A stretch of DNA of 64,000 nucleotides from NCBI GenBank assembly GCA_965207475.1, contig OZ242278.1, positions 551,127 through 615,126 of the forward strand, written 5' to 3'. Shown piece by piece: positions 11,148 through 44,706 of this stretch (its first letter is position 1; each line of letters begins with the position of its first letter). The DNA is from Gammaproteobacteria bacterium. Lineage in GTDB: Bacteria > Pseudomonadota > Gammaproteobacteria > UBA4575. The position numbers and the translations under genes were made by a program. A model generated the notes under the pieces. It was not told the origin of the DNA. It made no database searches and was given only the letters and a program-made list of their open reading frames with translations.

Positions 11148-12607
11148 CAGCTTGTCGTGCCGCCTACCGTGAGGCCATCAATGCGTAACGTGGGCTGCCC
11201 CACTCCCACCGGCACGCTTTGCCCTTCTTTTCCGCACGTGCCGACACCCGAGTCCAGCTGTAAATCATTCCCGACCATGCTGACGCGCGTCAGTACATTT
11301 GGACCATCACCGATCAGTGTCGCCCCCTTGACCGGCCTGGTAACCTTTCCTTTCTCTATCAGGTATGCTTCCGAGGCGGAAAATACAAACTTTCCGGAGG
11401 TGATATCCACCTGTCCGCCTCCAAAATTCACGGCATAGAATCCGGAATCCACCGAGCTGATAATTTCACCTGGATCGTACTCTCCAGCAAGCATGTAGGT
11501 ATTCGTCATGCGCGGCATGGGCAAATGGGCATAGGATTCACGCCTGCCGTTCCCGGTCGAATCCGTGTTGGATAATCTCGCATTCAGCTTGTCCTGCATA
11601 AAATTCTTGAGCACTCCATCTTCAATCAGTACGGTACATTGGGTGGCGGTTCCCTCATCGTCGATGTTCAGTGAACCTCGACGGTTCGACAGCGTGCCGT
11701 CATCCACGACCGTCACACCCTCGTTGGCAACACGCTCTCCAATCCGGCCGCTGAACGCAGAGGTCCCCTTATAGGTAAAGTCCCCCTCCAGCCCATGGCC
11801 GACCGCTTCATGCAGCAGCACGCCTGGCCATCCGGGTCCCAGCACTACGTTCATCGTGCCGGCAGGTGCATCCACCGCTTCCAGGTTCAGCAGTGCCATG
11901 CGCACTGCTTCGTGCACGTAAGATTGTGCCCGGTCTTCCTGGGCAAAGTATTCGTAGCCGAATCGACCGCCGCCGCCCGCACTGCCCTGCTCGATACGGC
12001 CGGAATGCTCCGCGATGACGGAAACATTCAGTCTCACCAGAGGACGCACATCTGCTGCGATCTGGCCCTCACTGCTTGCCACCAGTACCAGTTCATGTGT
12101 ACCCGCCAAAGACACCATCACCTGCTTTATGCGCGGATCCTGCTTGCGTGCAAGACTGTCCAGGTTTCGCAACATGTCCACTTTTTCCGTCTCGCTCAGG
12201 GAATCAAGGGGGTTGTAGGGCATGTAAAGATTATTGCCCGTGAAGGTTTTCCACCCTTGTTGTACGGACCCGCTCTTTCCACCTCTGGCAATTGCGCGGG
12301 CCGTCTTGCAGGACTCCAGCAAGGCAGGCAGTACAATTTCATCCGAATAGGCAAATCCGCTTTTTTCGCCTTTTATGGCCCGGATACCGGCTCCCTGGCT
12401 CAGGCTGTAACTTGCATCCTTGACGATCCCGTCCTCAAGCGACCAGGCTTCCTGCTTCCTCAACTGGAAATAGATGTCCCCGGCGTCTGCCGATGAGTCC
12501 AGCAACACCGAAAAGGCCCTGGTCAAGTGTGCATCATCCAGGCCAGAGGGTGTCAGAATGGTCTGTCTGGCCACGTCGAGAGGATTTTCCATACTATCTG
12601 AATTCAT
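11147..12607 (-). CDS. tldD: metalloprotease TldD
   Basis: 486 aa; contains the [12 protein letters not shown] zinc-binding motif diagnostic of TldD. Confidence 0.9.
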
Positions 12608-12619
12608 TTTGCTCGCACC

Positions 12620-13435
12620 TCATTTCAGTCGGCGATGGTGTATACAGGGAAAGGTTTTTCGAAGGGACTCCAGGTAATCCAGGTCAATTTTACCCAGTGC
12701 CATGCCCGCACCATGCCTGACACGATCCAGCACCCTGCCCCAAGGGTCTACAATCATGCTGTCTCCATACGTGGCACGCCCATTGATGTGGTAACCTCCC
12801 TGAGCAGATGCTATCACATACATGACATTTTCGATTGCTCGCGCCCGAATCAAGCTCTCCCAGTGTGCCTGACCGGTTACGGCAGTGAATGCTGCCGGCA
12901 GAACCGTGATCTGGACACCCGTATCGAGCATATTTCTGAAGAGTTCGGGGAAACGAAGGTCATAGCAGACTGCCAGTCCAATCTTGCCGAACGGCGAATC
13001 CACAACCCGAACCCCCGTCTCGCCGAATTCAATCGTTTCGGACTCGATATAGCTTTCATCCGCATCCACAAGGTTCACGTCAAACAGATGAATCTTGTCG
13101 TAGCGTGCAACGCAGGCTCCCTGATCATCATACACCAGGCAGGCGGCATAGATTTTCTGCGGATCCGGACATTCAATTGGCACCGTGCCCCCCACAATCC
13201 ATATTTTGTGAAGCCTGGACTGCTGGGCGAGAAAGTTCTGGATAACCCCTTCGCCTTGCGGTTCACGGACAGCCACCTTATCCTGCTCGCGCAGCCCCAT
13301 GATGGCAAAGTTTTCAGGCAAGACGACCAGGCTCGCACCGGCTTTTGCAGCCTGCTTGATCAAACGTCCCGTCTCGTGCAGGTTGGCCTCGACATTGGGG
13401 CCGGAGGCCATCTGTATCGCGGCAGCTTTGAACAT
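12620..13435 (-). CDS. carbon-nitrogen hydrolase family protein (nitrilase/omega-amidase-like)
   Basis: 271 aa; LVVLPE catalytic Glu region and AVCYDLRFPE Cys region of CN hydrolases; synteny with yhdP and tldD as in Pseudomonas. Confidence 0.8.
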   Translation of the reverse strand: MFKAAAIQMASGPNVEANLHETGRLIKQAAKAGASLVVLPENFAIMGLREQDKVAVREPQGEGVIQNFLAQQSRLHKIWIVGGTVPIECPDPQKIYAACLVYDDQGACVARYDKIHLFDVNLVDADESYIESETIEFGETGVRVVDSPFGKIGLAVCYDLRFPELFRNMLDTGVQITVLPAAFTAVTGQAHWESLIRARAIENVMYVIASAQGGYHINGRATYGDSMIVDPWGRVLDRVRHGAGMALGKIDLDYLESLRKTFPCIHHRRLK

Positions 13436-13536
13436 CTACAGTACCAAAATCTTGAATGATGCCCGTTCAGGCAGTTGCCTGGTACACACCAGGACAGGGT
13501 TGCCTGGATGAGCGAGCCCGACTCCCTGAAGGCTGT

Positions 13537-16500
13537 CTACGGAAACTCTTCATCCGGTTCATTCCCCGATTCATTCTCGGGGTCACCCTTCGAAGCCTGT
13601 GTGGCAGGCCCCGCCTCGGCAGCCTTCCCCGCAACCGGCTCGATCTTCGGGTCGTCCCAGCTGCCGGTCATGTGATAAGTCACCTCGACCACCCTGTCTA
13701 CTGCCTTATCCACATGAATTCCTATCTTTTCAGCAATTTTCCCCAAGATGTAGATTCCACCTACTCCAGCCGGTCCCATTGGAATTCCCAGCCAGGGCAG
13801 GCCTCCACTGACATGAGGCGTGACGGTAACCAGCTGATCATAGTCCCTGGCCACAATTCCCGTACGCCCCTCAATTTCTATATTCGCGGAGGGACCCTTG
13901 ATGCGCAGGTCCTCGGTGGTCAGATTGCCGTCCCTGAAGGCCAGGTTGCCGCGAATCTTATCAAACGCATAGCCCTCGGAGAAGAAGTCGGAAAAGTCCA
14001 GGGCAAGCCTCCTGGAAATTACGCTGATATTCAGCAAACCAATCAAACGGCCGGCTCCCGGCTCAACCGATACGATCTCTCCGTCCTTCAGCCTGATACT
14101 GGATGAGCCGGCAAAGGAGTCAAGGGAAAACTGGTACGGCGCCCCTTCCCAGTGAAAGCTGGACGACAAAACCCCTTCCCCTTTTTCGACTCCCGTTTCA
14201 AACCCCAGTCCGACCAGTGAATCACGCAAATCCTCCGTGACCATTACAATGTCAAACTTGGAAGTCTGGACCTCTTCCGGACCTGTCCTCCATGCTCCGC
14301 TGGCTGTGATCTCCAAGCTACTCCCTTCTGCGGAAACGGAATCAACCACCATCCCCTCCGGAGACGGAGAGGTTTTTAATGCAACGTTATAAACGGGAAG
14401 ATCACCAATCTCGAACTTCGTGGCTGCAATGTCCAGTGCCGGAAGGTTTCTGGGGTCTACCGAAAAACTGAGGGCCTCATCAGGCTTGTCGTATCGAAAA
14501 TGTTCAAAACTTGCGGTGAGAACGCTGTCCGCCTGCGGCGACAACGGATACTGGAAGTCACCACTTATGTTCGATGAGCGGATTTTTCCGTTCCAGAACT
14601 GAGTATCCTTCTCCATGCTGAATCTTGCATTTTGCGTGGCAAGACCAAATGCCGAGATTTCATCGGCCTGGATGTCAATTGAATCAAGCCCCAGGGAGTT
14701 TTGACCGTCACCGGACTGAAGTATCTCCAGCCACTCGGTGATGTCCAGCAAATCAAATTTCCCGGTAACCTTCACCCCCCGGTCAGGCAGCTCGAACCGG
14801 TCATTTTCGGTCCTGACTTCCAGGGCGGAAATCTGTGCGCCGGCTGGGTCCGGCAGGGCTTGTATGTAGATGCTGTCTTCAAAACGGACGGATAGTGGAT
14901 GAGAGGCTCCGTCCTGATGCCGGGTATGCATCACAAACGCCGAGGATGAATCCTGTTCCTTGGCAAAAGGCTCTGGCAAGGTAATGGACACGCCCGCCAG
15001 ATCACTCTCTATACGAATCTCCACTGACTCGTCCTTACCAAGATTTCCAAATTGCGGCAAGACAAAGGTTGCAGAGACGGGGGTCTTCCCGCGCAGGTAT
15101 TCAGATGCCCTGGACTGGTTTGCAGTCATCCATCTGTCCAGGTCGAGCGCACCGGCGAGCTGCACGCGGGTGCGTCCATTTTCCAGCAGTGCCGCTTCGA
15201 CATCAAACTCAGAACCAAACAGCTTGGCACGTACCCCCGTACCCTCCGCACCCTGTTTGGTAAACTTCAACTTGCCATGCACGCCAGTAAAGGGAAGCGA
15301 GGCCTTGCGCAGGACAAGATCTGCACCCTTGAACTCGATCAGTCCGTCCACGTGCCTTTCCTTTTCCAGCTTTCGTGTGAGTGTCCATGCAATATTCAGG
15401 TTCAGGCCCACCTCCCCATCGGCCGAGATATGACCGGGGATTTGGCTGTCCTGCGGAATCAGTGCAGACTGCTCAAGAAAAACCAGGGTGTCGCTGGCAG
15501 GCCCGCTGCCACGGCCATGGATCGTCAACCGGGGTAACCGGACGTCTTCGATCGAAGTCGTAAAGGCATGAATCCTGGAATCCAGAACCCGGGCTTCGGT
15601 GCCCTGGACGTGAAACTCGCCATTGTTGACTTCCACGTCTGCAGCGATATTCCGAATCATCGGCCAGTTTTTACGGTATTCAAGCAGTCCCTCCTCCACC
15701 TCGGCCTGCAGTTCGAACCTTCCGGAACGGCCGTCAAAGGGAAATCGCCCGGCATCACCGTTGAACAGGAACCTGGCATGGCTCAACGTACCCTGCTTGA
15801 TTGCCTCACGTAACCAGCGGACAAGCTTCTGGTTCATCCTTTTATGCGGTAACCAGTCCTTCAGGGCCGAAAGACTGGCCCGCGCCACTTCGCCCTGAAG
15901 ATCGGCATAGGATTTGCCAGGTTCAATCTGGACAATGCCCTGCAAGCTCGCGTCCACTTCTTCGGCAGCCAGCGATACCCTTTCCAGCGCAAGCACGACC
16001 CTCTCGCCCGAAAGCTTCCACTTGACCAGTCCTGTAATCTGCTGGCTCGGGAAGGTATTTTCTGCCAGCTGGCGAGCCTTGACTTCCACTGCAGGCGAGT
16101 CGATTTCAAGACTGCCCTGCAGGTGATTGCCGGTCACCCGGCCAGACAGGGATGATACCTCCAGTTCGTATTCCGGAACGGTCATGCCCAGGCCATCCAG
16201 TGCGGCCTCGTACGCATATTTTGCCAGGTGCTCTTCCTGCCAGAGCGCCGAGAATCTTATGTCACGGATCTCTCCCTCAGGATGCACGTTGCGCACCCAC
16301 CCCGAAAGGCGCTCAGAAAACGGCGAGAAATTTTCCAGTGTCTCGAGCATGTCGGCCAGGTTGACATAATCCAGGGCCGCCGTGACCTCCGGATGTGCGG
16401 TTTCACAATCCCTGCACCTGATTTCATATTTTCCACCCGCCCACTTGCCTTCTGCTGTCCTGATATCGCTGTCAACCAGAGCAAGGTGCCAGCTGCTTGC

Positions 16501-26293: not shown

Positions 26294-27718
26294 TCAACGA
26301 CCGTAGTCATCCTCATATCGCACGATATCATCCTCACCCAGGTAGCTTCCGGACTGGACTTCTATGAGCTGAAGCAGATCTGAACCAGGGTTTTCAAGAC
26401 GGTGCCGGGTACCAGCCTGGATATACGTGGACTCGTTCTCGCCCAACAGGAAGACTTCCTCGTCCCGGGTAACCCGAGCCGTTCCCTTTACGACGATCCA
26501 GTGCTCGTCACGGTGGCGATGCATCTGCAATGAAAGAGACTGGCCCGGATTGACCGTGATCCGCTTGACCTGAAAGCTGTCCTGGGTATCCATGACTTCA
26601 TAGGTCCCCCAAGGCCGGTGGACCTTGGGATGAATTTCCGCTTCGCTGCGCCCGTCCTCCTGCAGCCGGGCAACGACGTCCCTGATCTCCTGAGCTTTTT
26701 CACGTGGGGCCACCAGGACCGCATCGGCTGTCTCAATGACTACCAAATCCCTGGTTCCGACTGTCGTCACAAGGCGATGACTGGAGCGGATGTAGCACCC
26801 CTCGCAGTCTTCCTCGACAACATCCCCGGATGTCACGTTGCCACGCCCGTCCCGGGACATGGACTCCCAGAGGGCCTGCCAGGATCCTATGTCGCTCCAC
26901 CCGCTGTCGAGCCGCGTGACCGCAGCCTTGTCAGTACGTTCCATCACGGCATAGTCGACCGAAATGCTAGGTGCCATGGAAAAGGCTTGCCTGTCCAGGC
27001 GAACAAAATCCAGGTCGCGTTTCCGATTTGCATGCGCTTCCTGGCATGCCTCAAAAATCTCCGCTTGCAGGCGCTTGACTTCACTCAGGTACAATCCTGC
27101 CGAGAACAGGAACAGCCCGCTGTTCCAGAGGTAACGGCCACTTTCCAGGTAAGCCCTAGCCGTTTCAGAATCCGGCTTCTCCACGAATTCCTGTACCTCA
27201 TAGATCTCGCTTGAAGAGGAATCCAGGGGGGCCGCATCGTCGTATCTTATGTACCCGTAGCCGGTTTCAGCCCGATCGGGAACGATGCCGAAAGTCACCA
27301 GCCGGTCGACCGCAACCCGTACGGCGCGGGACACAGCGAGCCGAAACTGCTCCATGTCCTGCACGATGTGGTCGGCTGGAAGTATCAACAGGAAGGCATC
27401 GGGACCCCGGTCAAGCACATGCATGGCCGCAATGGTTATGGCCGGTGCCGTGTTACGCCCGGTTGGTTCAAGAATAATTTCTGCCGGAAGACCGGCGCGC
27501 CGCAATTGCTCGGCCGCCATGAAACGGTGTTCATCATTGCATAGCACCAGCGCCTCATTGACATTCTCCAGATTGCGGACCCGTTCAACCGTGGCCTGGA
27601 ACAGACTCTTGTCTCCCGTGATCGGAATAAACTGCTTGGGATAAAGCTTTCTGGAGAGAGGCCACAGGCGTGTGCCCGAACCTCCCGACAGGATGACAGG
27701 GATGATGGATGCCGTCAT
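26294..27718 (-). CDS. manC: mannose-1-phosphate guanylyltransferase / mannose-6-phosphate isomerase (type II PMI, ManC/AlgA-like)
   Basis: N-terminal nucleotidyltransferase domain (IPVILSGGSGTRLWPLS) plus a C-terminal cupin. Start chosen at the internal ATG (27718), which overlaps the lnt stop (ATGA); the track ORF extends to 27787, into lnt. Confidence 0.88.
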   Translation of the reverse strand: MTASIIPVILSGGSGTRLWPLSRKLYPKQFIPITGDKSLFQATVERVRNLENVNEALVLCNDEHRFMAAEQLRRAGLPAEIILEPTGRNTAPAITIAAMHVLDRGPDAFLLILPADHIVQDMEQFRLAVSRAVRVAVDRLVTFGIVPDRAETGYGYIRYDDAAPLDSSSSEIYEVQEFVEKPDSETARAYLESGRYLWNSGLFLFSAGLYLSEVKRLQAEIFEACQEAHANRKRDLDFVRLDRQAFSMAPSISVDYAVMERTDKAAVTRLDSGWSDIGSWQALWESMSRDGRGNVTSGDVVEEDCEGCYIRSSHRLVTTVGTRDLVVIETADAVLVAPREKAQEIRDVVARLQEDGRSEAEIHPKVHRPWGTYEVMDTQDSFQVKRITVNPGQSLSLQMHRHRDEHWIVVKGTARVTRDEEVFLLGENESTYIQAGTRHRLENPGSDLLQLIEVQSGSYLGEDDIVRYEDDYGR

Positions 27719-29259
27719 GAATGTCTCATCTCGCGATCTGGCCGATTCAAGGATAGGGTCTTGGATCGAGTCCTGTGCCAATGACAAAGCAAGATTATAA
27801 GGGAAATACAGGACAGGATTGCCAGGATTGTCCAGTTTCCCATGCGCGAGTAAGGTGTCTGACCTTCATGCGGTCGGATATTTGCCCGCACGACATCTTC
27901 CTGAAACTGGGAAGAGCGAGCCACAATCAAACCCTTTGGATCAATCACCGCCGAAATCCCCGTACTGGTTGCACGCAACAGGTATCGTCCCGACTCGATG
28001 GCCCTAGAACGCGAGATCTCCAGGTGCTGTTCGGGCGCATAGGAATCCCCGAACCAGGCGTCATTGCTGATATTGACCAGGAAATCGGCCTCGGGCATGG
28101 CTTCGATTATTTCGTTTCCATACACCACTTCATAGCAGATCGATGCACCGACCAGGTAGCCCTTGAGCTTGACCAGTGGCCGCCCTTTACCCGCGGATAT
28201 GTCGGACATCGGAAGATCGATATGGCGTGCCAGGAACGTTGCGAGATCCCGAAAGGGAATATACTCCCCGAAGGGCACCAGGCGGCGCTTGGAGTAAAAG
28301 CTTCTCTCCTCGCCAAAGGTCATCAGCGAGTTGTATACCCCCCCGGTAAGCTGATCATAGGTAAACAGGCCGACCAGAAAATCCGTACCGGATTCCTTCG
28401 CGATTTCTTCGAGGTCCGGGATGAATGAGTCCCTGACCTTGTAGAAGTAGGTAGGGATGGCGGATTCCGGCCACACGATGATCTCTGCATCCAGGTTTGC
28501 CTCGCTGAGCTGCTTGTACCGGCTCAGGATGCCCGCATGTTTTGTGCGGTCCCATTTCTCTTCCTGCGAAATATTTCCCTGAATCAGGGCGATACCGAGC
28601 GGCTCTCCGGCCGGGGTTGTCCAGGCCAGTTGACGGGTAACCAGCATCAGCACTGCTGCAAGCACCAGCACTGCAAGGGAAACGAGTTTTTCCCGGACTG
28701 CCGCAAAAACCAGTACGGCAGCCAGGCAGCCCGTGAGCACCGCCACCCATGATGCGCCGTAACTGCCCAGGATCGGTACAACGCCCTGTAACGGGCTGGA
28801 ATGATGTGCGTGTCCCATCAATAGCCACGGAAAGCCGGTAAATATCCAGCCACGCACCCACTCCGAAATCGTCCAGAGTGTCGCAAACGCAAGTGCGCCA
28901 CGAAGGCACAATGCCTGGCCCGAACACAGTTTCGAGAAAAGCAAAGTGGAAACTGCCGGAAACAGGGCAAGCACGGCTACCAGGAGCGTCACGAGAAAAA
29001 TACCCAGCCATACCGGTGCGTGGCCATACTCGTGAATGCTGTTGAATGTCCATGAAATACCCAGCCCGAAAAACACAAGCCCGAAAACGAGCCCCAGGAG
29101 AAATGCAGTCCCGGGCGAGCGTCCAGCGAGGGCGACGTACAGGGCTGCCGGGCAGACGAGTGTCAGCCACCACCATGAAAACGGTGCAAAACCGCAAACG
29201 AGCAAGGCCCCTGCTGCGACTGCGAGCAGGAACGCGACACTACTGGAAAGAATGGGCAT
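27715..29259 (-). CDS. lnt: apolipoprotein N-acyltransferase
   Basis: 514 aa; N-terminal polytopic membrane region plus a C-terminal CN-hydrolase domain; lnt-corC-ybeY-ybeZ-miaB synteny identical to E. coli. Confidence 0.93.
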   Translation of the reverse strand: MPILSSSVAFLLAVAAGALLVCGFAPFSWWWLTLVCPAALYVALAGRSPGTAFLLGLVFGLVFFGLGISWTFNSIHEYGHAPVWLGIFLVTLLVAVLALFPAVSTLLFSKLCSGQALCLRGALAFATLWTISEWVRGWIFTGFPWLLMGHAHHSSPLQGVVPILGSYGASWVAVLTGCLAAVLVFAAVREKLVSLAVLVLAAVLMLVTRQLAWTTPAGEPLGIALIQGNISQEEKWDRTKHAGILSRYKQLSEANLDAEIIVWPESAIPTYFYKVRDSFIPDLEEIAKESGTDFLVGLFTYDQLTGGVYNSLMTFGEERSFYSKRRLVPFGEYIPFRDLATFLARHIDLPMSDISAGKGRPLVKLKGYLVGASICYEVVYGNEIIEAMPEADFLVNISNDAWFGDSYAPEQHLEISRSRAIESGRYLLRATSTGISAVIDPKGLIVARSSQFQEDVVRANIRPHEGQTPYSRMGNWTILAILSCISLIILLCHWHRTRSKTLSLNRPDREMRHS

Positions 29260-31603: not shown

Positions 31604-32941
31604 CTACATTGCTGTCTCATGGAAGGCACCCCGCAAAGAATTTGAATATACCCCGGTGATCTCGAGACGTACAAACCTGCCCCGCACATCACGCGGCGCA
31701 TCGAAATTGACAACACGGTTGTTTTCGGTTCTCCCGGAATACTCCTGGCCCGACTTTCTCGAGTGTCCCTCAACCAGCACCATCTGATCCGTGCCCAGCA
31801 TGGCTTGGGAACGGTCCATGGATGCATTGCGAATGGTTTCCTGCAAGCGCTGAAGCCTGTGCTTCTTCACATCCAGCGAAACGGGATCCTCAAGTGATGC
31901 CGCGGGCGTGCCGGGCCGGCGACTGTAGATGAAGCTGTAGGACTGGTCGAAACCCACTTCTTCCACCAGCTCCATCGTGTCCTCGAAATCCTGGTCCGTT
32001 TCGCCCGGAAAACCGACAATGAAGTCTGATGAAATACTCACATCCGGCCTGTGCCTGCGCAACTTTCTGATGATGGACTTGTACTCCAGTGCCGTGTACC
32101 CGCGTTTCATAGCAGAGAGTATCCTGTCAGAGCCACTTTGGACCGGCAGGTGCACATGATTTACGAGTTCGGGAATCTCAGCATACGCATCGATCAGGTT
32201 GTCCGAAAATTCTACAGGATGGGAACTAGTATACCTTATCCGTTCTATGCCTTCGATATCGCTTACATAGTAAAGCAGCAGGGAAAAATCCACGATATTC
32301 CCGTGGCGGTCCAGCCCGCGGTACCCGTTCACGTTCTGGCCCAGCAATGTGACCTCGCGTGCACCCTGCCCGGCCAGCAAACCGATTTCATGCAACACAT
32401 CATCCAGTGGCCTGCTGAACTCTTCACCCCGCGTATAAGGCACTACACAATACGTGCAGTACTTGCTGCAGCCCTCCATGACTGAGACGTAGGCAACGGG
32501 ACCCTGGTGCCCGGGTTCAGGCAGGCAGTCGAACTTCTCCATCTCCGGGAAGGAAATATCGATGACCGCTTTCCTGCCCGTTGCCGCCTGGTCCAGCAAA
32601 TCGGGCAAGCGGTGAATCGTCTGGGGGCCGAACACAACGTCTACCTGTTTTGCGCGTGCTGCCAGGGACTCCCCTTCCTGACTGGCCACACATCCCCCGA
32701 CACCGATCAGGACATCCGGATTCTTTTCCTTCAAGGGTCGCCACCGACCCAGTTGTGAAAACACTTTTTCCTGTGCCTTTTCACGAATGGAGCATGTGTT
32801 GAGCAACAGGACATCGGCCTTGGACGGTTCATGGGTGATTTCAAAACCACAACCGTGGCGAAGTGCATCCAGCATCCTGCTGGAATCATACTCATTCATC
32901 TGGCATCCCTGTGTTTTGATGAATACTTTTTTAGACATCAA
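31604..32941 (-). CDS. miaB: tRNA-2-methylthio-N6-dimethylallyladenosine synthase
   Basis: 445 aa; N-terminal MTTase domain [20 protein letters not shown]; radical SAM CxxxCxxC (CSKYCTYC); TRAM C-terminus. Confidence 0.96.
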
Positions 32942-33164: not shown

Positions 33165-34073
33165 ATGCTATACCACTACAGTCGCACGCAGACCCTGCAC
33201 CAAGGCCGATACAAGGATGGGCAGTACATCACTGCCCCGGATTCCGAATACGCAGAAATGCTGACAAACTGGATTACTTCAGGCGATTTCATGGCCTACG
33301 AAGATGAGCGGTTTCGCCTCAAGCAGGCCCAGGGGCGGCCCCGTAACCTCCTGTACAGTTTTCACCTGCCCGGGATGCAGCAGGCCATGGTGATGAAGGT
33401 CTCGCACATCAGTCCACGGTACCGGCTGTCAAGAAAAATAGACCTGTTCATAACAGGCCTGTACAAGGATTACTGCAAAATCAGTTTTCATGGTGCGATG
33501 GCGCTGCACGAACAGGATCTTCCTGTTGCCAGACCGCTGGCTTTCTGGACCTTCAGGCAGGGCTGCTTCAGGAAAAAAAGCTATTTCTTGTGCAGCAAGC
33601 TTCCCGGCAGTCAATCCCTGAAACAATTGCTGGAATCCTGCCGGCAAAACAATTCTCATCCAGACTTCCACGGAATGGCCAGAAAACTGGCGTCCCTTGT
33701 ACGAAGCATTCATGCTGCCGGTCTGCGCCATGGCGACCTGCATACGGGTAATTTCCTTGCGCATGCCACGGAGCCTGCAGGCAGCCAGGCAAAAAAAATG
33801 CCTGAGTTTAATTTCTTTCTTGTGGATTATGACAAGTGTTCAGAAGTCAAGCTGAAACATCCATGGATAAAAACCGTGTACGACCTGAAAGACTTGAGCG
33901 GCCTGGTCATGCCCACCGTCCGGGACGAGGAATTGCTGGAAATGTACTTCAATGAAACCCCTTCCCCCCGTTCCATCAGGATTTTCAGGTTCTGGAAAAA
34001 CGGTGGTATCAACCTGCGCCGGAGACTGCTGGGACTTCCCCCGAAAAAGGAAAACCGGCATCTTGCAAGCTGA
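33165..34073 (+). CDS. lipopolysaccharide kinase (Kdo/WaaP/InaA) family protein
   Basis: Catalytic loop HGDLHTGNFL and downstream DYDK (DFG-like), typical of the Kdo/WaaP kinase family; 302 aa; reduced GC; first gene of the glycan island. Confidence 0.5.
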   Translation: MLYHYSRTQTLHQGRYKDGQYITAPDSEYAEMLTNWITSGDFMAYEDERFRLKQAQGRPRNLLYSFHLPGMQQAMVMKVSHISPRYRLSRKIDLFITGLYKDYCKISFHGAMALHEQDLPVARPLAFWTFRQGCFRKKSYFLCSKLPGSQSLKQLLESCRQNNSHPDFHGMARKLASLVRSIHAAGLRHGDLHTGNFLAHATEPAGSQAKKMPEFNFFLVDYDKCSEVKLKHPWIKTVYDLKDLSGLVMPTVRDEELLEMYFNETPSPRSIRIFRFWKNGGINLRRRLLGLPPKKENRHLAS

Positions 34074-34096
34074 CTGATGGCCCTGGAAACCTGTTC

Positions 34097-35413
34097 ATGA
34101 CCAAAAAGAAAAACATCCTCCTATGGAAGTTCGCGGATCACTATACGCGTGGCCTGAAAGACCATCTCGCCGACGATCTGGAAATCAAGGTATGGATCGA
34201 CAAGAAGAAATTCAAAGTGCCCACGCATCACATGGATGACCTCTACAAGCAACTGAAGTTTTCGGGACACAGCCCCCGACTGAACATGGATTATCAGCAC
34301 CAGAAGACGTTCGTGGACATTTACAGGAAGGTCATGAGACACACAAATGTCTTCATGTACATGTACAGTCGGTACCCGGCACTCAACGGGGAACACAATT
34401 TCATTGACATGATGGATGCGATGCACGTCTACACCCACCAGTTCATTGACATCCTGACCACCCATCATATCGACTATGTGTTCATGAGCAGGATTCCTCA
34501 CCGGGGTCCTGACCTGATTCTTTACCTGGTCGCCAAGGCACTGGATATCAAGGTCTTCATGCTCCAGCAGACTATTCTGAAAGGCAAGGCGTTTCTGGCC
34601 ACTGACATGCACGAAGTCGGCTCATTGGCCAGTGAAAACGAGGACCTGAAACCGGAAAAGATCCAGCAAAAACATCGAAACGCACTGTATTCAATCAGTA
34701 CCAGGCGAAGAACCAACCCCTACCTCAAGGCTTTCCTTTACCTGTTCAGGTTCGACCTGGACCTGTTGCTGTACCAGATCATGAATGCCCGAAAGAGCAG
34801 CGAATTCAAACGCAACTACACCTCTGCCCTGGCAGGCTCGTTACCCCAGGGAAGATTCGTCTATTTTGCCCTGCACCTGCAGCCTGAATTGACCACGGTC
34901 AGCTGGGGCGGTGAATTCGTAGACCAGGTGCTCGCCATTGAACATCTCAGGTCACTGCTTCCACAAGACTGGAGTATCGTGGTGAAGGAAAATCCCTTGC
35001 AGACTTTTCACTCGCGCGGCCCGCTGTTTTTTGCAAGGCTGAAGAAAATTCCAGGCGTATTCTATGTCGGCAAGGACACGGATACCTTTGACTTGATAGA
35101 AAAGGCAGAATTTGTTTCGACGGTAACAGGAACCGTCGGCATGGAGGCGCTGCGATTCGGCAAAAGAGTACTTGTCTTCGGCAGTGCCCCATACAAGGAA
35201 TTTCCAGGCGTCATCCGCTACTCGGACCGGTTGACCCTGGATGATATCCTGTCAGTACAATTCACCCACCAGGAAGTTGAACTCGCTCACGCCAGGCAAA
35301 AATCAAACATGGTCGATGCGGTAACTACCCCTGACGGCGCCAAAGCCGAAGATTTCTCAGCAGAAGACAACTTTCAGAACCTAGCAGAAATCATCAACCA
35401 AGCCACCAGGTAG
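34097..35413 (+). CDS. capsule-polysaccharide-biosynthesis (KpsS/KpsC-like, PF05159-type) putative keto-sugar glycosyltransferase
   Basis: 438 aa. Motif series (FALHLQPE, IVVKENP, VSTVTGTVGMEALRFGKRVLVFGSAPY) resembles the retaining beta-Kdo transferase (KpsS/KpsC) family. It is not PseG-like: no N-terminal G-rich loop. Assignment is by motif recall only. Confidence 0.4.
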   Translation: MTKKKNILLWKFADHYTRGLKDHLADDLEIKVWIDKKKFKVPTHHMDDLYKQLKFSGHSPRLNMDYQHQKTFVDIYRKVMRHTNVFMYMYSRYPALNGEHNFIDMMDAMHVYTHQFIDILTTHHIDYVFMSRIPHRGPDLILYLVAKALDIKVFMLQQTILKGKAFLATDMHEVGSLASENEDLKPEKIQQKHRNALYSISTRRRTNPYLKAFLYLFRFDLDLLLYQIMNARKSSEFKRNYTSALAGSLPQGRFVYFALHLQPELTTVSWGGEFVDQVLAIEHLRSLLPQDWSIVVKENPLQTFHSRGPLFFARLKKIPGVFYVGKDTDTFDLIEKAEFVSTVTGTVGMEALRFGKRVLVFGSAPYKEFPGVIRYSDRLTLDDILSVQFTHQEVELAHARQKSNMVDAVTTPDGAKAEDFSAEDNFQNLAEIINQATR

Positions 35414-35440
35414 ACCCGCTTGCAGGATGATCTCTCTTTT

Positions 35441-37668
<2,228 letters not shown>

Positions 37669-38052
37669 TCAGGTTGCAATTTCCCATATCCATCTACTCG
37701 CCTGCTCTGCCCAAGAGTGTTACAGCTGTTGCAGCACTACAGGGCAGATAATCAAGAAACCTTCATTACCTGAAACTTCTAAATGCCCTGTTTTCGTATC
37801 AGACAAATTACCTTATTTGGCAGTCATGCTTATTTTCGGTGGAAATCTGGCAAATAACCAATACTGTTTGTTATAAAAGCCGGCCCCGTCAAGTATTGAG
37901 TTCGTGTCCTTCTGATATGATAGTTTTCCATCAAAAACACCAGAGACCAGTAACAGGCATGATCAGGATCTTCTCGAAACTTCTTTAGATCATATCCTCC
38001 GAATGACAATAAAATCTCTTTTGGACAATATGCAAGCCTCAAGCGAAATGCC

Positions 38053-38060
38053 TGTATAAT
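38053..38060 (+). promoter_or_regulatory. candidate extended -10 promoter element (TGTATAAT) upstream of pseF
   Basis: cCTGTATAAT lies 125 nt upstream of the pseF ATG in a 570-bp AT-rich divergent intergenic region; no well-spaced -35 is present. Confidence 0.35.
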
Positions 38061-38184
38061 CTAGCTGAACTGCATCATGGAAGCTGAGAAAATACCCGGA
38101 TCACCCATAATCAATTTCACGACACAGTGATTCAATCTAATCCCGGGCTCCAAACAAGGTTTTACCGACGATGTTTCAGCAGGA

Positions 38185-38889
38185 ATGAGTGAAGCAGTCG
38201 CACTTATCCCAGCGCGTGGTGGCAGTAAGCGCATTCATCGAAAAAACGTAAGAAATTTTCACGGGCGCCCGATGATTGCATGGCCGATAGATGCAGCGCA
38301 CCGTTCTGAGCTATTTAATCGTATAATCGTATCGACAGATGACCATGAAATTGCTGAAACGGCACGCAGAGAAGGGGTAGACGTTCCGTTTCTCAGGCCA
38401 TCTGAGTTGGCCAATGACAAAGTTGGGATCATGCCCGTGGTCCAACACGCAATTCAAGAACTGCATAATGCGGGGATTTTGATCCGCGATCTGTGCCTGA
38501 TCTATGCGACAGCCCCCTTCATTAGGAGCTCCGACCTAAGGAGAGGCCAAGCTATCCTTCACGCCGAACGCAGCGACTTTGCAATATCAGTCACAAGTTT
38601 TCCTTTTCCCATACAACGTGCCCTAAAGAAAACCATGGATGGGCGACTGGCAATGTTTCAGCCCGAAGACTTCAATTCCCGGTCTCAAGACCTGGAACCT
38701 GCATACCATGATGCGGCCCAGTTTTGTTGGGGAACAGCGGAGGCCTGGATTGAAAATCGGTGTATATACGGTTCCAACTCCGTGCCAGTCATGCTTCCTC
38801 GCCACCTTGTACAAGATATAGACAACGAAGAAGACTGGGTAACCGCTGAATGGATGTTCAAAGCGCTTAAAGATGCTGGTGAAATTTGA
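38185..38889 (+). CDS. pseF: pseudaminic acid cytidylyltransferase (CMP-NeuAc synthetase family)
   Basis: N-terminal ALIPARGGSKRI motif of acylneuraminate/pseudaminate cytidylyltransferases; 234 aa; ~48% GC. Confidence 0.8.
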   Translation: MSEAVALIPARGGSKRIHRKNVRNFHGRPMIAWPIDAAHRSELFNRIIVSTDDHEIAETARREGVDVPFLRPSELANDKVGIMPVVQHAIQELHNAGILIRDLCLIYATAPFIRSSDLRRGQAILHAERSDFAISVTSFPFPIQRALKKTMDGRLAMFQPEDFNSRSQDLEPAYHDAAQFCWGTAEAWIENRCIYGSNSVPVMLPRHLVQDIDNEEDWVTAEWMFKALKDAGEI

Positions 38890-39037
38890 CCAGCAGTATT
38901 TCACTCCATCTTAAATCCCTGAAAGCACCGAAAACAAACATACCTCTATCTTGCAGTTGGAACTTGTAGCGGCAGTATTGCCGAAAGACAAACCTGCAAC
39001 ACTTACTGATTCGCCAGCTTTCACGCTTTTCCATCTC

Positions 39038-40099
39038 TCAGCATACGTGTGCTACTTCTGAAACTTTTATCCTTTCTCCTTTGGCATATGAATGCTCGGA
39101 AGCTTTTCCAATAAGTGATTTCCAGTACCGCGGATGTAAACCAAAACCTGGCCTGATTATGCGGATATTGTCAGTGCTGAATATATCCCCTTCTGCTATG
39201 TATGACACAGCATAAATAGACCGTCTATAACGCAGTGACTTCATTTCGTTGACAGATATTCCAAAGCTTTCAGAGCCAATAGATTTTTTAACCAATGCAG
39301 CATCCTCAACAAGTTTCGAAAACTCAGCTTCATCTGCTGAAAAAGAACTATCCACCCCTTCATTCAGGCGTGATTTTGTGAAATGCTTTTCTATAACCGA
39401 GGCACCCAGTGCAATGCTCGCCAATGCGGCCTGATTGCCTACTGTATGATCAGAAAACCCGACGATACATTGATGTTTCTTAGCTAGAAGAGGTATAGAC
39501 GCCAAGTTTACATCGTCGACATTTGCTGGATAATCAGAGGTACATTTCAAAAGAACAAGATTCTCACACCCACTGTCACGGGCAACAGCCACTGCTTCAT
39601 CAATCTCATCTTCAGCAGCGAGACCAGTCGAGATGATCAGCGAACGACCTGTCTCTGCCACTTGTCGAATTAACGGATAATGAACATTCTCAAAGGAAGC
39701 TATCTTATAGGCACATGGTGACAATTTTTCCCAAAACTCGACAGACGTTTCATCAAACACGGAACTGAAGCACTCAAGCTCAATTGTTTTGCAATACTCA
39801 TAAATACTTCTCACCCAATCCCAGTCTGTGTACGCTTTCTTGTACAAGCCATACAGTGTTTGACCAGCCCAGAGACTGTCTGCTTCAGAAATTAGAAAAT
39901 CTTCATTATCAGAATCTATAGTAAGTGTATCTGGAGTGTATGTCTGAAGCTTAAGTGCATTTGCACCCGCCCTTTTTGCAGCTTTTGCGATCTCTATTGC
40001 TTGCTCATAGGACTGGTTATGATTGCCTGACATTTCCGCAATAATATAAGGCCGATACTCAGGCCCAACGGGGACATCCCCCATATATACAACCATCAT
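39038..40099 (-). CDS. pseI: pseudaminic acid synthase (NeuB-family nonulosonic acid synthase)
   Basis: 353 aa NeuB family (IIAEMSGNHN...) with a C-terminal SAF/antifreeze-like domain. Assigned as PseI by the pseB/pseC context. Start overlaps the formyltransferase stop (TAATG). Confidence 0.85.
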   Translation of the reverse strand: MMVVYMGDVPVGPEYRPYIIAEMSGNHNQSYEQAIEIAKAAKRAGANALKLQTYTPDTLTIDSDNEDFLISEADSLWAGQTLYGLYKKAYTDWDWVRSIYEYCKTIELECFSSVFDETSVEFWEKLSPCAYKIASFENVHYPLIRQVAETGRSLIISTGLAAEDEIDEAVAVARDSGCENLVLLKCTSDYPANVDDVNLASIPLLAKKHQCIVGFSDHTVGNQAALASIALGASVIEKHFTKSRLNEGVDSSFSADEAEFSKLVEDAALVKKSIGSESFGISVNEMKSLRYRRSIYAVSYIAEGDIFSTDNIRIIRPGFGLHPRYWKSLIGKASEHSYAKGERIKVSEVAHVC

Positions 40100-40926
40100 T
40101 ACTCTCCAAGCTTGCTCAGCAATTCAGAAATTCTGTTATCGTCTGAATTTATCCGCCTCACTATTTGCGCTGCCTCATCCGGTGCCTTGGCAAATGCAAG
40201 TCTCATCAAATCCATCCAATTTACATTATTATTTCGCCGGGCTGTTTCTATCTCATCAATCAACGACAACTTGCCATGTAAAATCGCAACATCAAGTTCA
40301 TCAAGCCGAGAGACCTCTTCGACAATATTCGAATCCCAACCAGAAAATTCATCTGGAAGATCCTCGACATGATGGTATGACCCATCACCCCTCTGCTTGA
40401 ATGGCACAAATTCATTGCACAGGAGTGCACTTAAATTATCTGAAAACAGCGTTTCAATCTCTCGAACAAGCCTGGTATGAGTATCCCTAAACGTTAGCTC
40501 CTCTTGATCGAAATTTACGTATTTTTGAAAGAGTATTTCGCCAGTATCGATACCTTCATCGACGCAATGTATGGTAACTCCGCTTGGAGTACCCTCGAAA
40601 AATGACCAGAAATTAGGATGTGCGCCCCTGTTGTAAGGCAAATAGCCAATGTGGAGATTAATTATTGCCCGTCTGGCTGTGGAAAGCACGTTTGGCGACA
40701 TAATGTGCCTGTACCCGAAACATATGACTAAATCATATTCAGAAACATCATGGATTTCCTGTTCAGTTTGCCAAACCTCGCAATTATTCCTAAGGAGTAA
40801 ATGTATAAGCGTGGTTTTGTTTTCGTCATATCCTAGAAACAAAACTTTTTGTTTATTCTCTACTGCAGTTTGCTCTTCGGCAGAAACTAAACGAGGTCTC
40901 GTCATCACCTTGTACTCAGCCAACAC
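40099..40926 (-). CDS. formyltransferase-domain protein (Fmt/PurN-like N-terminal domain + ~120-aa acidic C-terminal region)
   Basis: N-terminal DLVICFGYRHIMSPNVLSTARRAIINLHIGYLPYNRGAHPNFWSFFEG...GVTIHCVDEGIDTGEIL matches the formyl_trans_N catalytic core (N...H...D). 275 aa; ~42% GC; translationally coupled to pseI. Confidence 0.7.
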   Translation of the reverse strand: MLAEYKVMTRPRLVSAEEQTAVENKQKVLFLGYDENKTTLIHLLLRNNCEVWQTEQEIHDVSEYDLVICFGYRHIMSPNVLSTARRAIINLHIGYLPYNRGAHPNFWSFFEGTPSGVTIHCVDEGIDTGEILFQKYVNFDQEELTFRDTHTRLVREIETLFSDNLSALLCNEFVPFKQRGDGSYHHVEDLPDEFSGWDSNIVEEVSRLDELDVAILHGKLSLIDEIETARRNNNVNWMDLMRLAFAKAPDEAAQIVRRINSDDNRISELLSKLGE

Positions 40927-41853: not shown

Positions 41854-44706
41854 ATGAAGAAGATTTCCATCCGGGGTGCACGGACACACAATCTTCAGAA
41901 TGTCAGCGTTGACCTGCCTCGCGATAAACTCATCGTCATCACGGGTTTATCCGGCTCGGGCAAGTCGTCCCTGGCTTTCGACACGATCTTTGCAGAGGGA
42001 CAGCGCAGGTACGTTGAATCCCTGTCAGCCTACGCCCGTCAGTTCCTGTCGCGCCTGGAAAAGCCGGATGTCGACTCCATCGACGGCCTGTCGCCCTCCA
42101 TTTCCATCGAACAAAAAGCAAGTTCCCACAATCCGCGCTCCACGGTCGGAACCATCACCGAGATTTACGACTACCTACGCCTGCTCTATGCACGTGCTGG
42201 AATTCCGCGCTGTCCCACGCACCAGATCGACCTGCATGCCCAAACGGTAAGCCAGATGGTCGACAAGGTACTGTCGCTGGAAGAAGGCAAGAAACTCATG
42301 CTCCTGGCACCGGTCGTTCAAAATCGAAAGGGAGAGCACTTGCAGGTGATGTCCAGGCTGCTGGCCCAGGGTTTTCTCCGCGCACGAATCGACAACGAGG
42401 TGCATGAACTCGACTCACCCCCGAAGCTGAGCCTGAGGCACAAGCATACCATTGAAGTCATCGTGGACAGGTTCAGGGTCAGGAAAGACCTGAAGCTCCG
42501 GCTGGCGGAATCTTTCGAGACGGCACTGAAGCTTGCAGACGGCATTGCCACCGTCCAGTCGATGGATCATCCGGATGAGGAGGCACTGGTATTCTCTGCG
42601 AAATTTGCCTGCCCGAAATGCGGCTACAGCCTGAACGAGCTCGAGCCTCGCCTGTTTTCTTTCAACAACCCGATCGGTGCATGCTCTGCATGTGACGGAC
42701 TGGGTACCGAGGAGTTCTTTGACCCGGAACTGGTAGTCACCAACCATGAAGTCAGCCTGGCCGGAGGTGCCATCCGGGGATGGGACCGCCGAAACGCCTA
42801 TTACTTCAACTTGATCCAGTCCCTTTCCAGGCACTACAAGTTTGATATCGAGGCTCCCTGGGCTGAACTGGATGACAGGATCCGGGACATCATCCTGTAC
42901 GGCAGTCAAGGCGAGTCCATCCGCTTCAAATTCACAAATGAGAAGGGCAAAACCTACCAGAGCCGACATGAATTCGAAGGCATCATCCCCAACATGGAGC
43001 GGCGATTTCATGAGACGGGGTCCAGTGCCGTACGCGAGGAACTCAGAAAATACCTCACTACACAGGTATGCCAGCTATGCGGAGGCGCCCGGCTGAACAG
43101 GGAGGCACGCAACGTATTCGTCAATCAGCACAACCTGCCCTCCGTTACCTCCTGGTCCACAGAAAAAGCCCTGGAATATTTCAATAACCTTAATCTTTCC
43201 GGACACTTGGCTGCAGTAGGTGAAAAGATTATTCACGAAATATGTCAGCGCCTTGATTTTCTTGTAAATGTCGGGCTGGATTACCTGGCACTTGACCGTA
43301 CTGCGGAGACCCTGTCAGGCGGCGAATCACAAAGGATCAGGCTTGCAAGCCAGATCGGTTCCGGACTGGTCGGTGTCATGTACATACTGGATGAGCCGTC
43401 TATCGGCCTGCACCAGCGTGACAACAAGCGACTGATCAAGACACTGAACTACCTGCGGGACCTCGGGAATACCGTGATCGTCGTGGAGCATGATGAAGAA
43501 GCCATACGAAGTGCCGACCATGTCGTCGACATGGGTCCTGGTGCAGGGGTCCATGGAGGCAGGCTGGTCGCCCAGGGTTCACCGGCCGAGATCGAGAGAA
43601 ACCCGGCTTCCCTAACCGGACAGTACCTGTCCGGAAAGCGCATCATCCAGGTGCCGCCGATGCGCTTGCCCTTCCACAAAGACAGGACGATCCGGATCGT
43701 GGGTGCCAGCGGGAACAACCTGCAGGGAATCACAGTAGACATCCCCCTGGGCTTGCTGACGGTAGTCACGGGCGTTTCAGGTTCGGGGAAATCCACACTG
43801 GTGAACGATACGCTGTACAGGTATTGCATGCGCCACCTGTACGGCTCGAGTGTCCTGCCTGCGACGTGTACGGAAATCCAGGGTCTGGACCAGGTGGACA
43901 AGGTGGTGGATATTGACCAGAACCCGATCGGGCGTACGCCACGCTCCAACCCGGCTACCTACACGGGTCTGTTCACACCCATACGTGAGCTGTTTGCCAG
44001 TATCCCTGAAGCACGGTCGCGAGGATACAAACCGGGGCGCTTCAGCTTCAATGTCCGGGGTGGAAGATGCGAGGCCTGCCGGGGTGACGGGGTCATCAAG
44101 GTGGAAATGCACTTTTTGCCCGACATCTATGTTCCATGCGAAATCTGCCAGGGGAAACGCTACAACCGTGAGACCCTCGAAATACAATACAAAAATAAAA
44201 ATATCCACCAGGTGCTGCAAATGACCGTCGAGGATGCCATCGGTTTTTTCGGTGCGATTCCCGTCATCAAGCGCAAGCTTCTAACACTCATGGATGTTGG
44301 CCTGTCCTACATTTCACTGGGCCAGAGCGCGACGACACTGTCAGGCGGAGAGGCCCAGCGTGTGAAGCTTTCGCGCGAGCTGTCCAAACGAAGTACGGGA
44401 AAAACCCTGTATATCCTGGATGAGCCCACTACCGGCCTGCACTTTCACGATGTTGAGCAGCTGCTCAAGGTACTGCACCATCTACGTGACCAAGGCAATA
44501 CCATCGTAGTCATTGAACATAACCTCGATATCATCAAAACTGCCGACTGGATCATCGACCTGGGTCCTGAGGGAGGTAATGGCGGAGGAAGGGTCGTTGC
44601 AAGCGGTACTCCGGAAGAAGTGGCATTTTCGCAGGATTCCTTCACCGGGGAACACCTGAAATGCGCCCTGAACATGAACATCATGCCCAAAGAACAATCA
44701 GCCTGA
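41854..44706 (+). CDS. uvrA: excinuclease ABC subunit A
   Basis: 950 aa; near-colinear with E. coli UvrA (GARTHNL, two ABC modules, Zn fingers); divergent from ssb as in E. coli and Pseudomonas. Confidence 0.98.

Follow-up and report, generated by a model that had tools for sequence, protein, structure and literature searches.

What does the seven-gene block between miaB and ssb of an uncultured gammaproteobacterium make, where does its product end up, and how did the block come to lie there? The stretch of DNA in question, hereafter the window, comprises 64,000 nucleotides (nt) of GenBank contig OZ242278.1 (assembly GCA_965207475.1, positions 551,127 to 615,126), and the block occupies positions 33165-40926 of this window, with seven open reading frames (ORFs) in the strand order + + - - + - -. 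We consider it rather likely that this is a resident, functional surface-glycan locus which makes cytidine monophosphate (CMP)-activated Pse5Ac7Fo, a 7-N-formyl pseudaminic acid, and that this sugar is transferred by an enzyme resembling KpsS1, most probably onto a lipopolysaccharide (LPS) or lipooligosaccharide (LOS) core that is also modified by a WaaP-like kinase. The host has a genome of about 2 Mb and is related to sponge symbionts. Relatives referred to below include L001, a 615-kb metagenome contig from the European Nucleotide Archive (ENA); L005, the closed 2.045-Mb sequence OZ244849.1, entitled 'MAG: Gammaproteobacteria bacterium' (MAG, metagenome-assembled genome); L008, the proteobacterial MAG SB0662_bin_53, which we take to be sponge-derived; and L002 and L165, which are the same genome.

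The nature of the sugar is indicated by four genes that the initial annotation had recognised as homologues of PseB, PseC, PseI and PseF, all of which score above the cut-offs of the corresponding NCBIfam equivalog models. PseB, the inverting 4,6-dehydratase of uridine diphosphate N-acetylglucosamine (UDP-GlcNAc), is encoded on the minus strand at 36595..37614 and reaches 552.5 bits with TIGR03589 (cut-off 407.75), the FnlA and LegB models staying far under their cut-offs. Its gene overlaps by 4 nt with pseC (35441..36598, minus strand), the product of which, the UDP-4-amino-4,6-dideoxy-N-acetyl-beta-L-altrosamine transaminase, scores 552 bits with TIGR03588 (cut-off 423.5) and 229 bits with the LegC-family model, under its cut-off of 420. 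The pseudaminic acid synthase PseI (39038..40099, minus strand) scores 423.2 bits with TIGR03586 (cut-off 340.25), compared to 263.7 bits with the NeuB model, which is under its cut-off of 399.65. Lastly, the CMP-pseudaminic acid synthetase PseF (38185..38889, plus strand) aligns with TIGR03584 from residue 5 onward at 291.3 bits (cut-off 205.7). Since the LegB, LegC and NeuB models score far under their own cut-offs, the assignment to pseudaminic acid stands, and the profile comparison that could have moved these genes to a legionaminic or sialic acid pathway came out negative. The other three domains that had been named, PF06293, PF05159 and PF00551, are likewise found above their Pfam gathering scores. 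Of the six enzymes in the canonical Pse5Ac7Ac pathway of Campylobacter jejuni and Helicobacter pylori (PseB, PseC, PseH, PseG, PseI and PseF), four are thus present as clear equivalogs. The block differs from that pathway in having PseJ in place of PseH, in the absence of PseG from the 64 kb, and in a transferase of the KpsS rather than the Maf type. As a side observation, pseB contains an exact 19-nt direct repeat, ATGATCCAGTGCCGCCTGT, at 37258-37276 and 37557-37575 (spacing 299 nt), for which the chance expectation is none; its two copies are read in different frames (TGGTGS versus QAALDH), and it is present in the window and the near-identical L001 only, not in L005 or any other locus.

So what takes the place of PseH? 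Upstream of pseI on the minus strand lies a 275-amino-acid (aa) ORF with a PF00551 domain (40099..40926), which probably begins at the ATG at 40905. The gene's stop codon and the start of pseI overlap, in line with the coupling of the two genes proposed earlier, and among loci recovered with a PseJ profile, PseJ is located directly upstream of PseI in most of the long metagenome loci. The best matches of this ORF among solved structures are 6ci2, 6ci4, 6ci5 and 6edk ('formyltransferase PseJ'; E 1.2e-32 over 141 residues), followed by the formylation domain of LgrA at 3e-26, and by VioF, WlaRD, ArnA, Fmt and PurN at 1e-15 or weaker. Other formyltransferases, whether of sugars, tRNA or purines, are thus more distant than PseJ. 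Furthermore, the catalytic Asn-x-His (I-N-L-H-I) and Asp-Thr-Gly (D-T-G) motifs align with their counterparts in PseJ, and four homologues from the clade show no variation in them. The protein is therefore most likely a PseJ-type sugar N-formyltransferase, predicted from its sequence to formylate UDP-4-amino-4,6-dideoxy-L-AltNAc, for which N10-formyl-THF would be the donor. As summarised in PMC11040635, citing Reimer et al. 2018, PseJ fills in on the route to Pse5Ac7Fo, where it replaces PseH. The same paper reports a PseF that accepted Pse5Ac7Fo about as well as Pse5Ac7Ac (kcat/Km 4.85 versus 4.71; PMC11040635). Because PseJ replaces PseH, the missing PseH is a known variant of the pathway and not an anomaly. 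The gene content had initially been called non-canonical, which considerably overstates the matter: the formyltransferase is a PseJ homologue, and a KpsS-type pseudaminyltransferase has a precedent in KpsS1 (glycosyltransferase family GT118).

With PseJ instead of PseH, we infer the exact sugar to be Pse5Ac7Fo, the 4-amino group of the hexose becoming N7 by the carbon numbering of the product. The pathway would start with PseB and PseC turning UDP-GlcNAc into UDP-4-amino-4,6-dideoxy-beta-L-AltNAc, the 4-amino group of which would be formylated by the PseJ-type enzyme in PseH's stead. After removal of UDP, presumably by a PseG encoded outside the window, PseI would join the free sugar with phosphoenolpyruvate (PEP) to yield Pse5Ac7Fo, which PseF would then activate to CMP-Pse5Ac7Fo. 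In Anoxybacillus kamchatkensis, the source of the four PseJ structures, PseJ also clusters with PseB, PseC, PseI and PseF in the place of PseH, and the window protein retains homology over 141 residues along with the catalytic motifs. Unlike that system, the window host is a Gram-negative, uncultured gammaproteobacterium, its locus lacks PseG, and its PseJ combines translational coupling to pseI with a C-terminal extension of about 55 aa. This conserved, helical extension (window 40099-40270) is without a Pfam match. It is common to the orthologues of L005 and L008 and to about half of 80 metagenome PseJ homologues, and is absent from the crystallised PseJ and from the homologue in L003. An uncultured Gram-negative relative of sponge symbionts would thereby join the one Gram-positive thermophile in which the PseJ route to 7-N-formyl pseudaminic acid has been characterised.

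Could the enzyme for the UDP-removing step be hidden nearby? Neither PseG nor PseH was detected in any frame of the 64-kb window with phmmer seeds (all E > 0.3, and all E > 0.5 for the four PseH seeds), and tblastn of the window likewise found no pseG. Two PseG hidden Markov models (HMMs) built here gave no match at E < 0.01 in the window, L005, L008 or L009, and blastx of the four intergenic regions of the block, including the gap between pseB and pseF, against all relatives found no gene relics. A pseG or pseH concealed in the block or window was rejected on these grounds, and the initial impression that both are absent from the locus can be widened to its surroundings. The same two HMMs do recover PseG in about 45 other loci, including those of the relatives L002, L007, L010, L003 and L167. 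None of 48 homologues of the PseG-like protein of L002 was on a contig of 2,045,000 or 614,929 bp, the sizes of L005 and L001, although this search is insensitive, the query being a divergent PseG and the detection of matches depending on shared words. We also considered whether another protein of the locus could act as PseG, and rejected both candidates. The C-terminal extension of PseJ and the pair of kinase and transferase cannot substitute for it, because each co-occurs with PseG elsewhere: the long form of PseJ is found with a PseF-PseG fusion in L090 and L091, and both the KpsS-like protein and the kinase are found with PseG in L002, L007, L010, L003 and L167. The simplest reading is a distant pseG, since PseG lies several kilobases from the synthase in L010 and L003, and the PseJ-PseI modules of metagenomes are often far from other Pse genes. 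Therefore, pseG is probably encoded elsewhere in the genome.

One may also ask whether the pathway is broken, the locus being a decaying remnant that lost pseG and no longer makes pseudaminic acid. The absence of PseG from the window, L005 and L008, set against its presence in L002, L007, L010, L003 and L167, would fit such a loss. Yet all seven ORFs are intact and all are under purifying selection: the ratio of nonsynonymous to synonymous divergence (dN/dS) against the strain L005 is 0.04-0.20 for the seven genes (0.20 for the kinase and 0.11 for the KpsS-like gene) at a synonymous divergence (dS) of about 0.2, and against L008 it is 0.04-0.14 at a dS above 1. Moreover, the arrangement without pseG has been kept in two lineages with an ancient split. 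Decay of the locus is therefore very improbable, and the persistence of a pseG-less arrangement under selection is one of two modest novelties of this locus.

The other novelty concerns the first two genes of the block, and it is here that the transfer of the sugar comes in. The second of them encodes a protein of 438 aa (34097..35413, plus strand) that matches PF05159 at 29.1 bits against a cut-off of 20; this match is weak and confined to residues 286-372. With the profile of its family, KpsC chains are recovered at E 5e-7. The AlphaFold model, for which 20 homologues were used (predicted local distance difference test, pLDDT, 85.9), finds as its top Foldseek matches the retaining transferases of 3-deoxy-D-manno-oct-2-ulosonic acid (Kdo) KpsC (GT107), WbbB (GT99) and KrkA (GT140), with E values of 7e-8 to 2e-6 and the lowest-scoring KrkA chains at about 2e-5. 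Hydrolysing and non-hydrolysing UDP-GlcNAc 2-epimerases rank next. It should be noted that this fold match is at the level of domains, as TM-scores are only 0.3-0.46. The neighbourhoods of its homologues point towards pseudaminic acid: in a scan of one genome per species, which returned 443 relatives, PseB, PseC, PseF or PseI is encoded within 10 kb in most of the best 80 of the 443 loci, which are found in Flavobacteriia, Opitutales, Selenomonadaceae, Burkholderiales, Rhizobiaceae and Melainabacteria, among others. A search of plasmids with the transferase gave only three weak matches to hypothetical proteins.

According to Walklett et al. 2024, as cited in PMC12887879, KpsS1 of Acinetobacter baumannii is a KpsS-type retaining Pse5Ac7Ac pseudaminyltransferase and the founding member of CAZy family GT118. 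The catalytic base of KpsS1 has been proposed to reside in a YE motif, as PMC12887879 relates. The window protein and KpsS1 are both of the KpsS/PF05159 type and both encoded beside Pse biosynthesis genes, and the fold modelled here is akin to that of KpsC and WbbB, two retaining Kdo transferases. By analogy, the KpsS-like protein is probably a CMP-pseudaminic acid-dependent transferase, which we adopt as a working assignment. The differences are that KpsS1 works in a Wzx/Wzy capsule locus, whereas the window protein is partnered by a WaaP-like kinase and its relatives by LPS inner-core genes, and that the window protein, with its weak PF05159 match of 29 bits, lacks a literal YE dipeptide. 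The acidic residues invariant in its own family are D139, E264, D276 and E282. In L008 (284-1562), two overlapping ORFs (318 and 118 aa) stand in place of a single KpsS-like gene, which may be a short-read frameshift or a real pseudogene.

The gene 23 nt upstream of the transferase, first of a conserved two-gene unit, encodes a WaaP-like kinase of 302 aa (33165..34073, plus strand), with a PF06293 score of 46.9 bits against a cut-off of 21.3. The top Foldseek match of its AlphaFold model (pLDDT 82.9) is the LPS heptose kinase WaaP of Pseudomonas aeruginosa (6dfl, E 2.7e-10). Among 20 homologues, K78, H189/D191/N196 and D221 are invariant and D223 nearly so. The protein thereby falls into the same Pfam family as WaaP and KdkA, has their eukaryotic-like kinase fold and retains their catalytic Lys, HxD...N and DxD elements. 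However, with 45.8 bits against a KdkA cut-off of 142 and 29.6 bits against an RfaP cut-off of 170, it falls far short of orthology to either KdkA or WaaP/RfaP. It belongs to a separate, small subfamily (64 clusters at E <= 1e-30 in an exhaustive profile search of 1.84 billion representatives), and its relatives carry a genuine kdkA as well. A word-indexed search with the kinase returned 24 homologues. The kinase gene is located 23-24 nt upstream of the transferase gene in the window, L002, L003, L005, L009 and L010. Overall, the pair is conserved throughout L001-L011, and L012-L014 have more weakly matching kinase homologues (34-38% identity) ahead of the transferase. This pairing, conserved and restricted to the clade, is the other modest novelty.

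Some members of the kinase subfamily are fused. P0228, P0230, P0237, P0255 and P0276 measure about 515 aa and consist of an N-terminal second kinase-like region followed by the C-terminal subfamily domain, and P0268 (1052 aa) is a fusion with a domain of glycoside hydrolase family 2. Being mostly tandem kinases, plus this one glycoside-hydrolase fusion, the fused forms give no hint of the substrate. Furthermore, a GFO/IDH/MocA oxidoreductase and a radical S-adenosylmethionine (SAM) enzyme recur near the kinase at L013 4962-7401, L014 4113-5498 and L166 7640-9968. These loci belong to more distant members of the clade, have a KpsS-like gene or not, and contain no Pse genes within 10 kb, which hints that the pair could serve a different sugar in L013, L014 and L166.

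So where does the sugar go? The earlier reading did not choose between LPS, capsule and protein as the target, and it is the context in relatives that now favours the LPS core. L008 carries the same pseI-pseJ module, in which pseJ is followed immediately by DUF6165, a glycosyltransferase family 9 (GT9) heptosyltransferase, the full-length Kdo kinase gene kdkA, and waaA. In L009, waaA, kdkA, GT9 and DUF6165 lie upstream of the kinase-transferase pair, and in L003 the pair is preceded by waaA-kdkA-GT9 and followed by a GT25 gene. The locus of L167 consists of the kinase, a canonical PseG, DUF900, the KpsS-like gene and GT9, and a more distant member of the kinase subfamily is located near GT9 in L166. 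At the same time, none of kpsM/T/D/E, kpsC, wzx, wzy and wzz was found in the 64-kb window or in the 21-kb loci of close relatives. Decoration of the LPS/LOS core is favoured because inner-core genes flank the pair in relatives without capsule or O-antigen export genes there. From these relatives we infer that the acceptor is most probably an LPS or LOS core, to which the KpsS-like transferase would attach Pse5Ac7Fo, and that the same core would be the substrate of the co-transcribed WaaP-like kinase. The DUF6165 protein just mentioned (129 aa; L008 8140-8529, L009 8471-8860) adjoins the GT9 heptosyltransferase, between the Pse genes and those of the LPS inner core.

Several points nevertheless weigh against this assignment of pathway and acceptor. 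No UDP-sugar hydrolase is encoded in the locus or the window, which leaves a gap in the pathway. The likeness to KpsS1 is drawn from its description and not from its sequence. The window locus itself is not beside waaA, GT9 or kdkA, none of which occurs anywhere in the window, meaning that the LPS-core acceptor is a matter of relatives only, and enzymes of the KpsS family also start capsules on lipid acceptors. This last point leads to the alternative that the same genes feed a capsule or K-antigen-type polymer, with a phospholipid anchor on which the KpsS-like enzyme would start or extend a Pse glycan, in the way that KpsS adds Kdo. The transferase does match the capsule-synthesis family PF05159, its nearest solved structures include KpsC, and several loci of Rhizobiaceae (L041, L043 and L068), in apparent K-antigen clusters, place one or two, in part duplicated, KpsS-like copies beside Pse genes. 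Rhizobial K-antigens contain pseudaminic acid derivatives. Conversely, the capsule and export genes listed above are lacking from the window and the relatives' loci, and the partner genes within the clade are a WaaP-like kinase, heptosyltransferase, kdkA, waaA and GT25, making a capsular product unlikely. A protein acceptor has even less to recommend it. PseB, PseC, PseI and PseF are the same enzymes that are used in flagellin glycosylation, and the sugar could in principle be O-linked to flagellin or pilin, as happens in Campylobacter, Helicobacter and Aeromonas; yet the window and the relatives' loci contain no Maf-type transferase and no flagellar or pilin gene, and the linked transferase is of the KpsS type, so that this destination is hardly credible. 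For the LPS core, the small WaaP-like kinase subfamily together with the KpsS-type transferase, repeatedly encoded by heptosyltransferase, kdkA and waaA genes, provides a testable candidate for the placement of a nonulosonic acid.

This leaves the question of how the block came to be where it is. It had been described as a low-GC, horizontally acquired system, probably an old replacement in a glycan hotspot rather than a mobile island. The content of guanine and cytosine (GC) indeed drops, with block genes ranging from 41.9% to 53.9%, compared to a mean of 55.6% (standard deviation, sd, 2.1) in the 40 other genes of the window. However, the drop is uneven, and the flanking genes miaB and ssb are at 54.0% and 53.2% rather than at 56-58%. 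GC at third codon positions (GC3; background 0.642, sd 0.035) separates the genes more clearly. The kinase (0.630), the KpsS-like gene (0.658) and pseC (0.604) are at background level, and the outliers are pseB (0.553), pseF (0.468, z = -5.0), pseI (0.359, z = -8.2) and pseJ (0.406), with z values spanning -2.6 to -8.2. Only pseF, pseI and pseJ are compositionally foreign. As for mobility, the window has no integrase and no tRNA gene, no meaningful repeats flanking the block were found, and the neighbours of the block are housekeeping genes. The absence of an integrase and of tRNA flanks, noted at the outset, is thereby confirmed, and the features that would make the block a mobile genomic island, namely an integrase, a tRNA target or flanking direct repeats, are lacking.

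The relatives allow this history to be followed further. From 24097 to 45412, the window is 99.4% identical to L001, and 94.7% identical to and fully colinear with L005. Against L005, the block genes have a dS of 0.15-0.26, compared to 0.12-0.20 in the flanks. Because this dS is like that of the flanks and dN/dS is low, the block was already present in the common ancestor of the window strain and L005 and has been kept by selection. In the genome of L002 and L165, a relative at about 75% nucleotide identity, the same slot between miaB and ssb holds a version of 13.9 kb, the left half of which is as in the window and the right half different. Here the order is miaB, an FkbM methyltransferase, the kinase, the KpsS-like gene, a metallo-beta-lactamase (MBL)-fold gene, a methyltransferase, PseC, PseB, PseF, a divergent PseG, a PseI-like synthase that narrowly misses the cut-off at 325.6 bits, WbqC, a flavin adenine dinucleotide (FAD) oxidoreductase, a methyltransferase and ssb; WbqC, the oxidoreductase and methyltransferases form a tailoring cassette at L165 11110-15231. 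From the kinase to pseF, nucleotide identity with L002 is 73-76%, equal to that of the core flanks (74.5%). Past pseF the window and L002 have nothing in common, and the synthases at the site are only 33% identical. The left flank, miaB, is the same in L002 and L005.

These observations also bear on the idea that all 7.8 kb of the block arrived recently as a foreign island. What speaks for it is the fall in GC across the block, the GC3 of pseF, pseI and pseJ at 5-8 sd under background, and a PseI sharing only a third of its residues with the L002 synthase at the same site. Against this, the kinase, transferase and pseC have a host-like GC3, the genes from the kinase to pseF are syntenic with L002 and diverge as the flanks do, dS against L005 matches that of the flanks, and an integrase, tRNA or flanking repeat is missing. 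Recent arrival of the entire block is thus distinctly improbable. Horizontal acquisition can apply at most to the pseF-pseI-pseJ end, since the divergence of the kinase, the transferase, pseC and pseB from the relatives keeps pace with that of the core genes on either side. Likewise, the hotspot part of the earlier description stands, as does the block not being a mobile island, and replacement stands for the pseF/pseI/pseJ end only.

Other relatives carry yet other sets by the same kinase-transferase pair. In L009 this is a WbuX/HisH/HisF amidotransferase set of the acetamidino type (11362-13893), together with a PseH-like gene. L003 (15696-20923) and L010 have NeuB-like synthases with WbqC and PIG-L genes, with extra methyltransferases in L003, where the PIG-L gene encodes a deacetylase and a short PseJ-like formyltransferase is present as well. 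Because relatives carry different right-hand sets by the same pair, the miaB-ssb interval is a conserved hotspot in which the distal decoration cassette is exchanged. The kinase, transferase, pseC, pseB and pseF would then have been inherited vertically at this fixed site of the clade, and the distal cassette that sets the N-acyl decoration would have been exchanged between lineages. In other words, one chromosomal slot is kept and its N-acyl module is swapped, with formyl here and amidotransferase or WbqC/methyltransferase sets in relatives, as would be anticipated if host cells or phages exerted diversifying pressure on a surface epitope.

A more far-reaching reading would be that CMP-Pse5Ac7Fo is made without any PseG-type hydrolase, through a non-orthologous enzyme or another order of steps, that the clade-specific WaaP-like kinase and KpsS-like transferase form a new two-enzyme unit that could phosphorylate, on the LPS core of symbionts living with sponges, either the acceptor or the pseudaminic acid residue itself, and that the exchangeable N-acyl cassette serves evasion of host or phage. 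We regard this combination as quite doubtful. Every enzyme of the locus belongs to a family that has already been described, and nothing in it overturns current knowledge. As to the link with sponges, the more distant carriers of the transferase include closed chromosomes of 1.8-2.4 Mb from Candidatus Oxydemutatoraceae, Ca. Oxydemutator and Ca. Porisulfidus, in addition to SB0662_bin_53. Oxydemutator has been described as a dominant sponge symbiont (PMC11685487).

On the left the block is bounded by miaB (31604..32941, minus strand; TIGR01574, 587.5 bits), the last gene of a single long minus-strand run of leuS-manC-lnt-corC-ybeY-phoH-miaB, and on the right by ssb (41217 to about 41723, minus strand; TIGR00621, 183.7 bits), from which uvrA diverges. 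The change in gene organisation reported earlier is therefore correct, all genes from leuS to miaB being on the minus strand before the mixed orientations of the block begin, and the ORF coordinates hold. Within the block, pseB and pseF are separated by a divergent, AT-rich intergenic region of 570 bp (37615..38184; GC 41.1%), in which promoter-like sites are no more frequent than expected by chance; the same applies to the counts of promoters and terminators. No Rfam families were found between 30 and 45 kb of the window. The sole further glycan-related gene in the 64 kb is a manC-type gene (GDP-mannose pyrophosphorylase / mannose-6-phosphate isomerase; GDP, guanosine diphosphate) at 26294-27787, which is flanked by leuS and lnt in an operon that consists of housekeeping genes apart from it, and which has the same position in L002. 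The remaining genes are housekeeping genes, among them ruvC, aspS, hda, purMN, pmbA/tldD, yhdP, rng, rpoA, secY, ribosomal proteins, tuf and fusA. Finally, uvrA is one intact ORF of 950 aa in the window (41854-44706) and is called as two genes (687 and 267 aa) at L001 17758-20611, which suggests a frameshift or an assembly error in L001.

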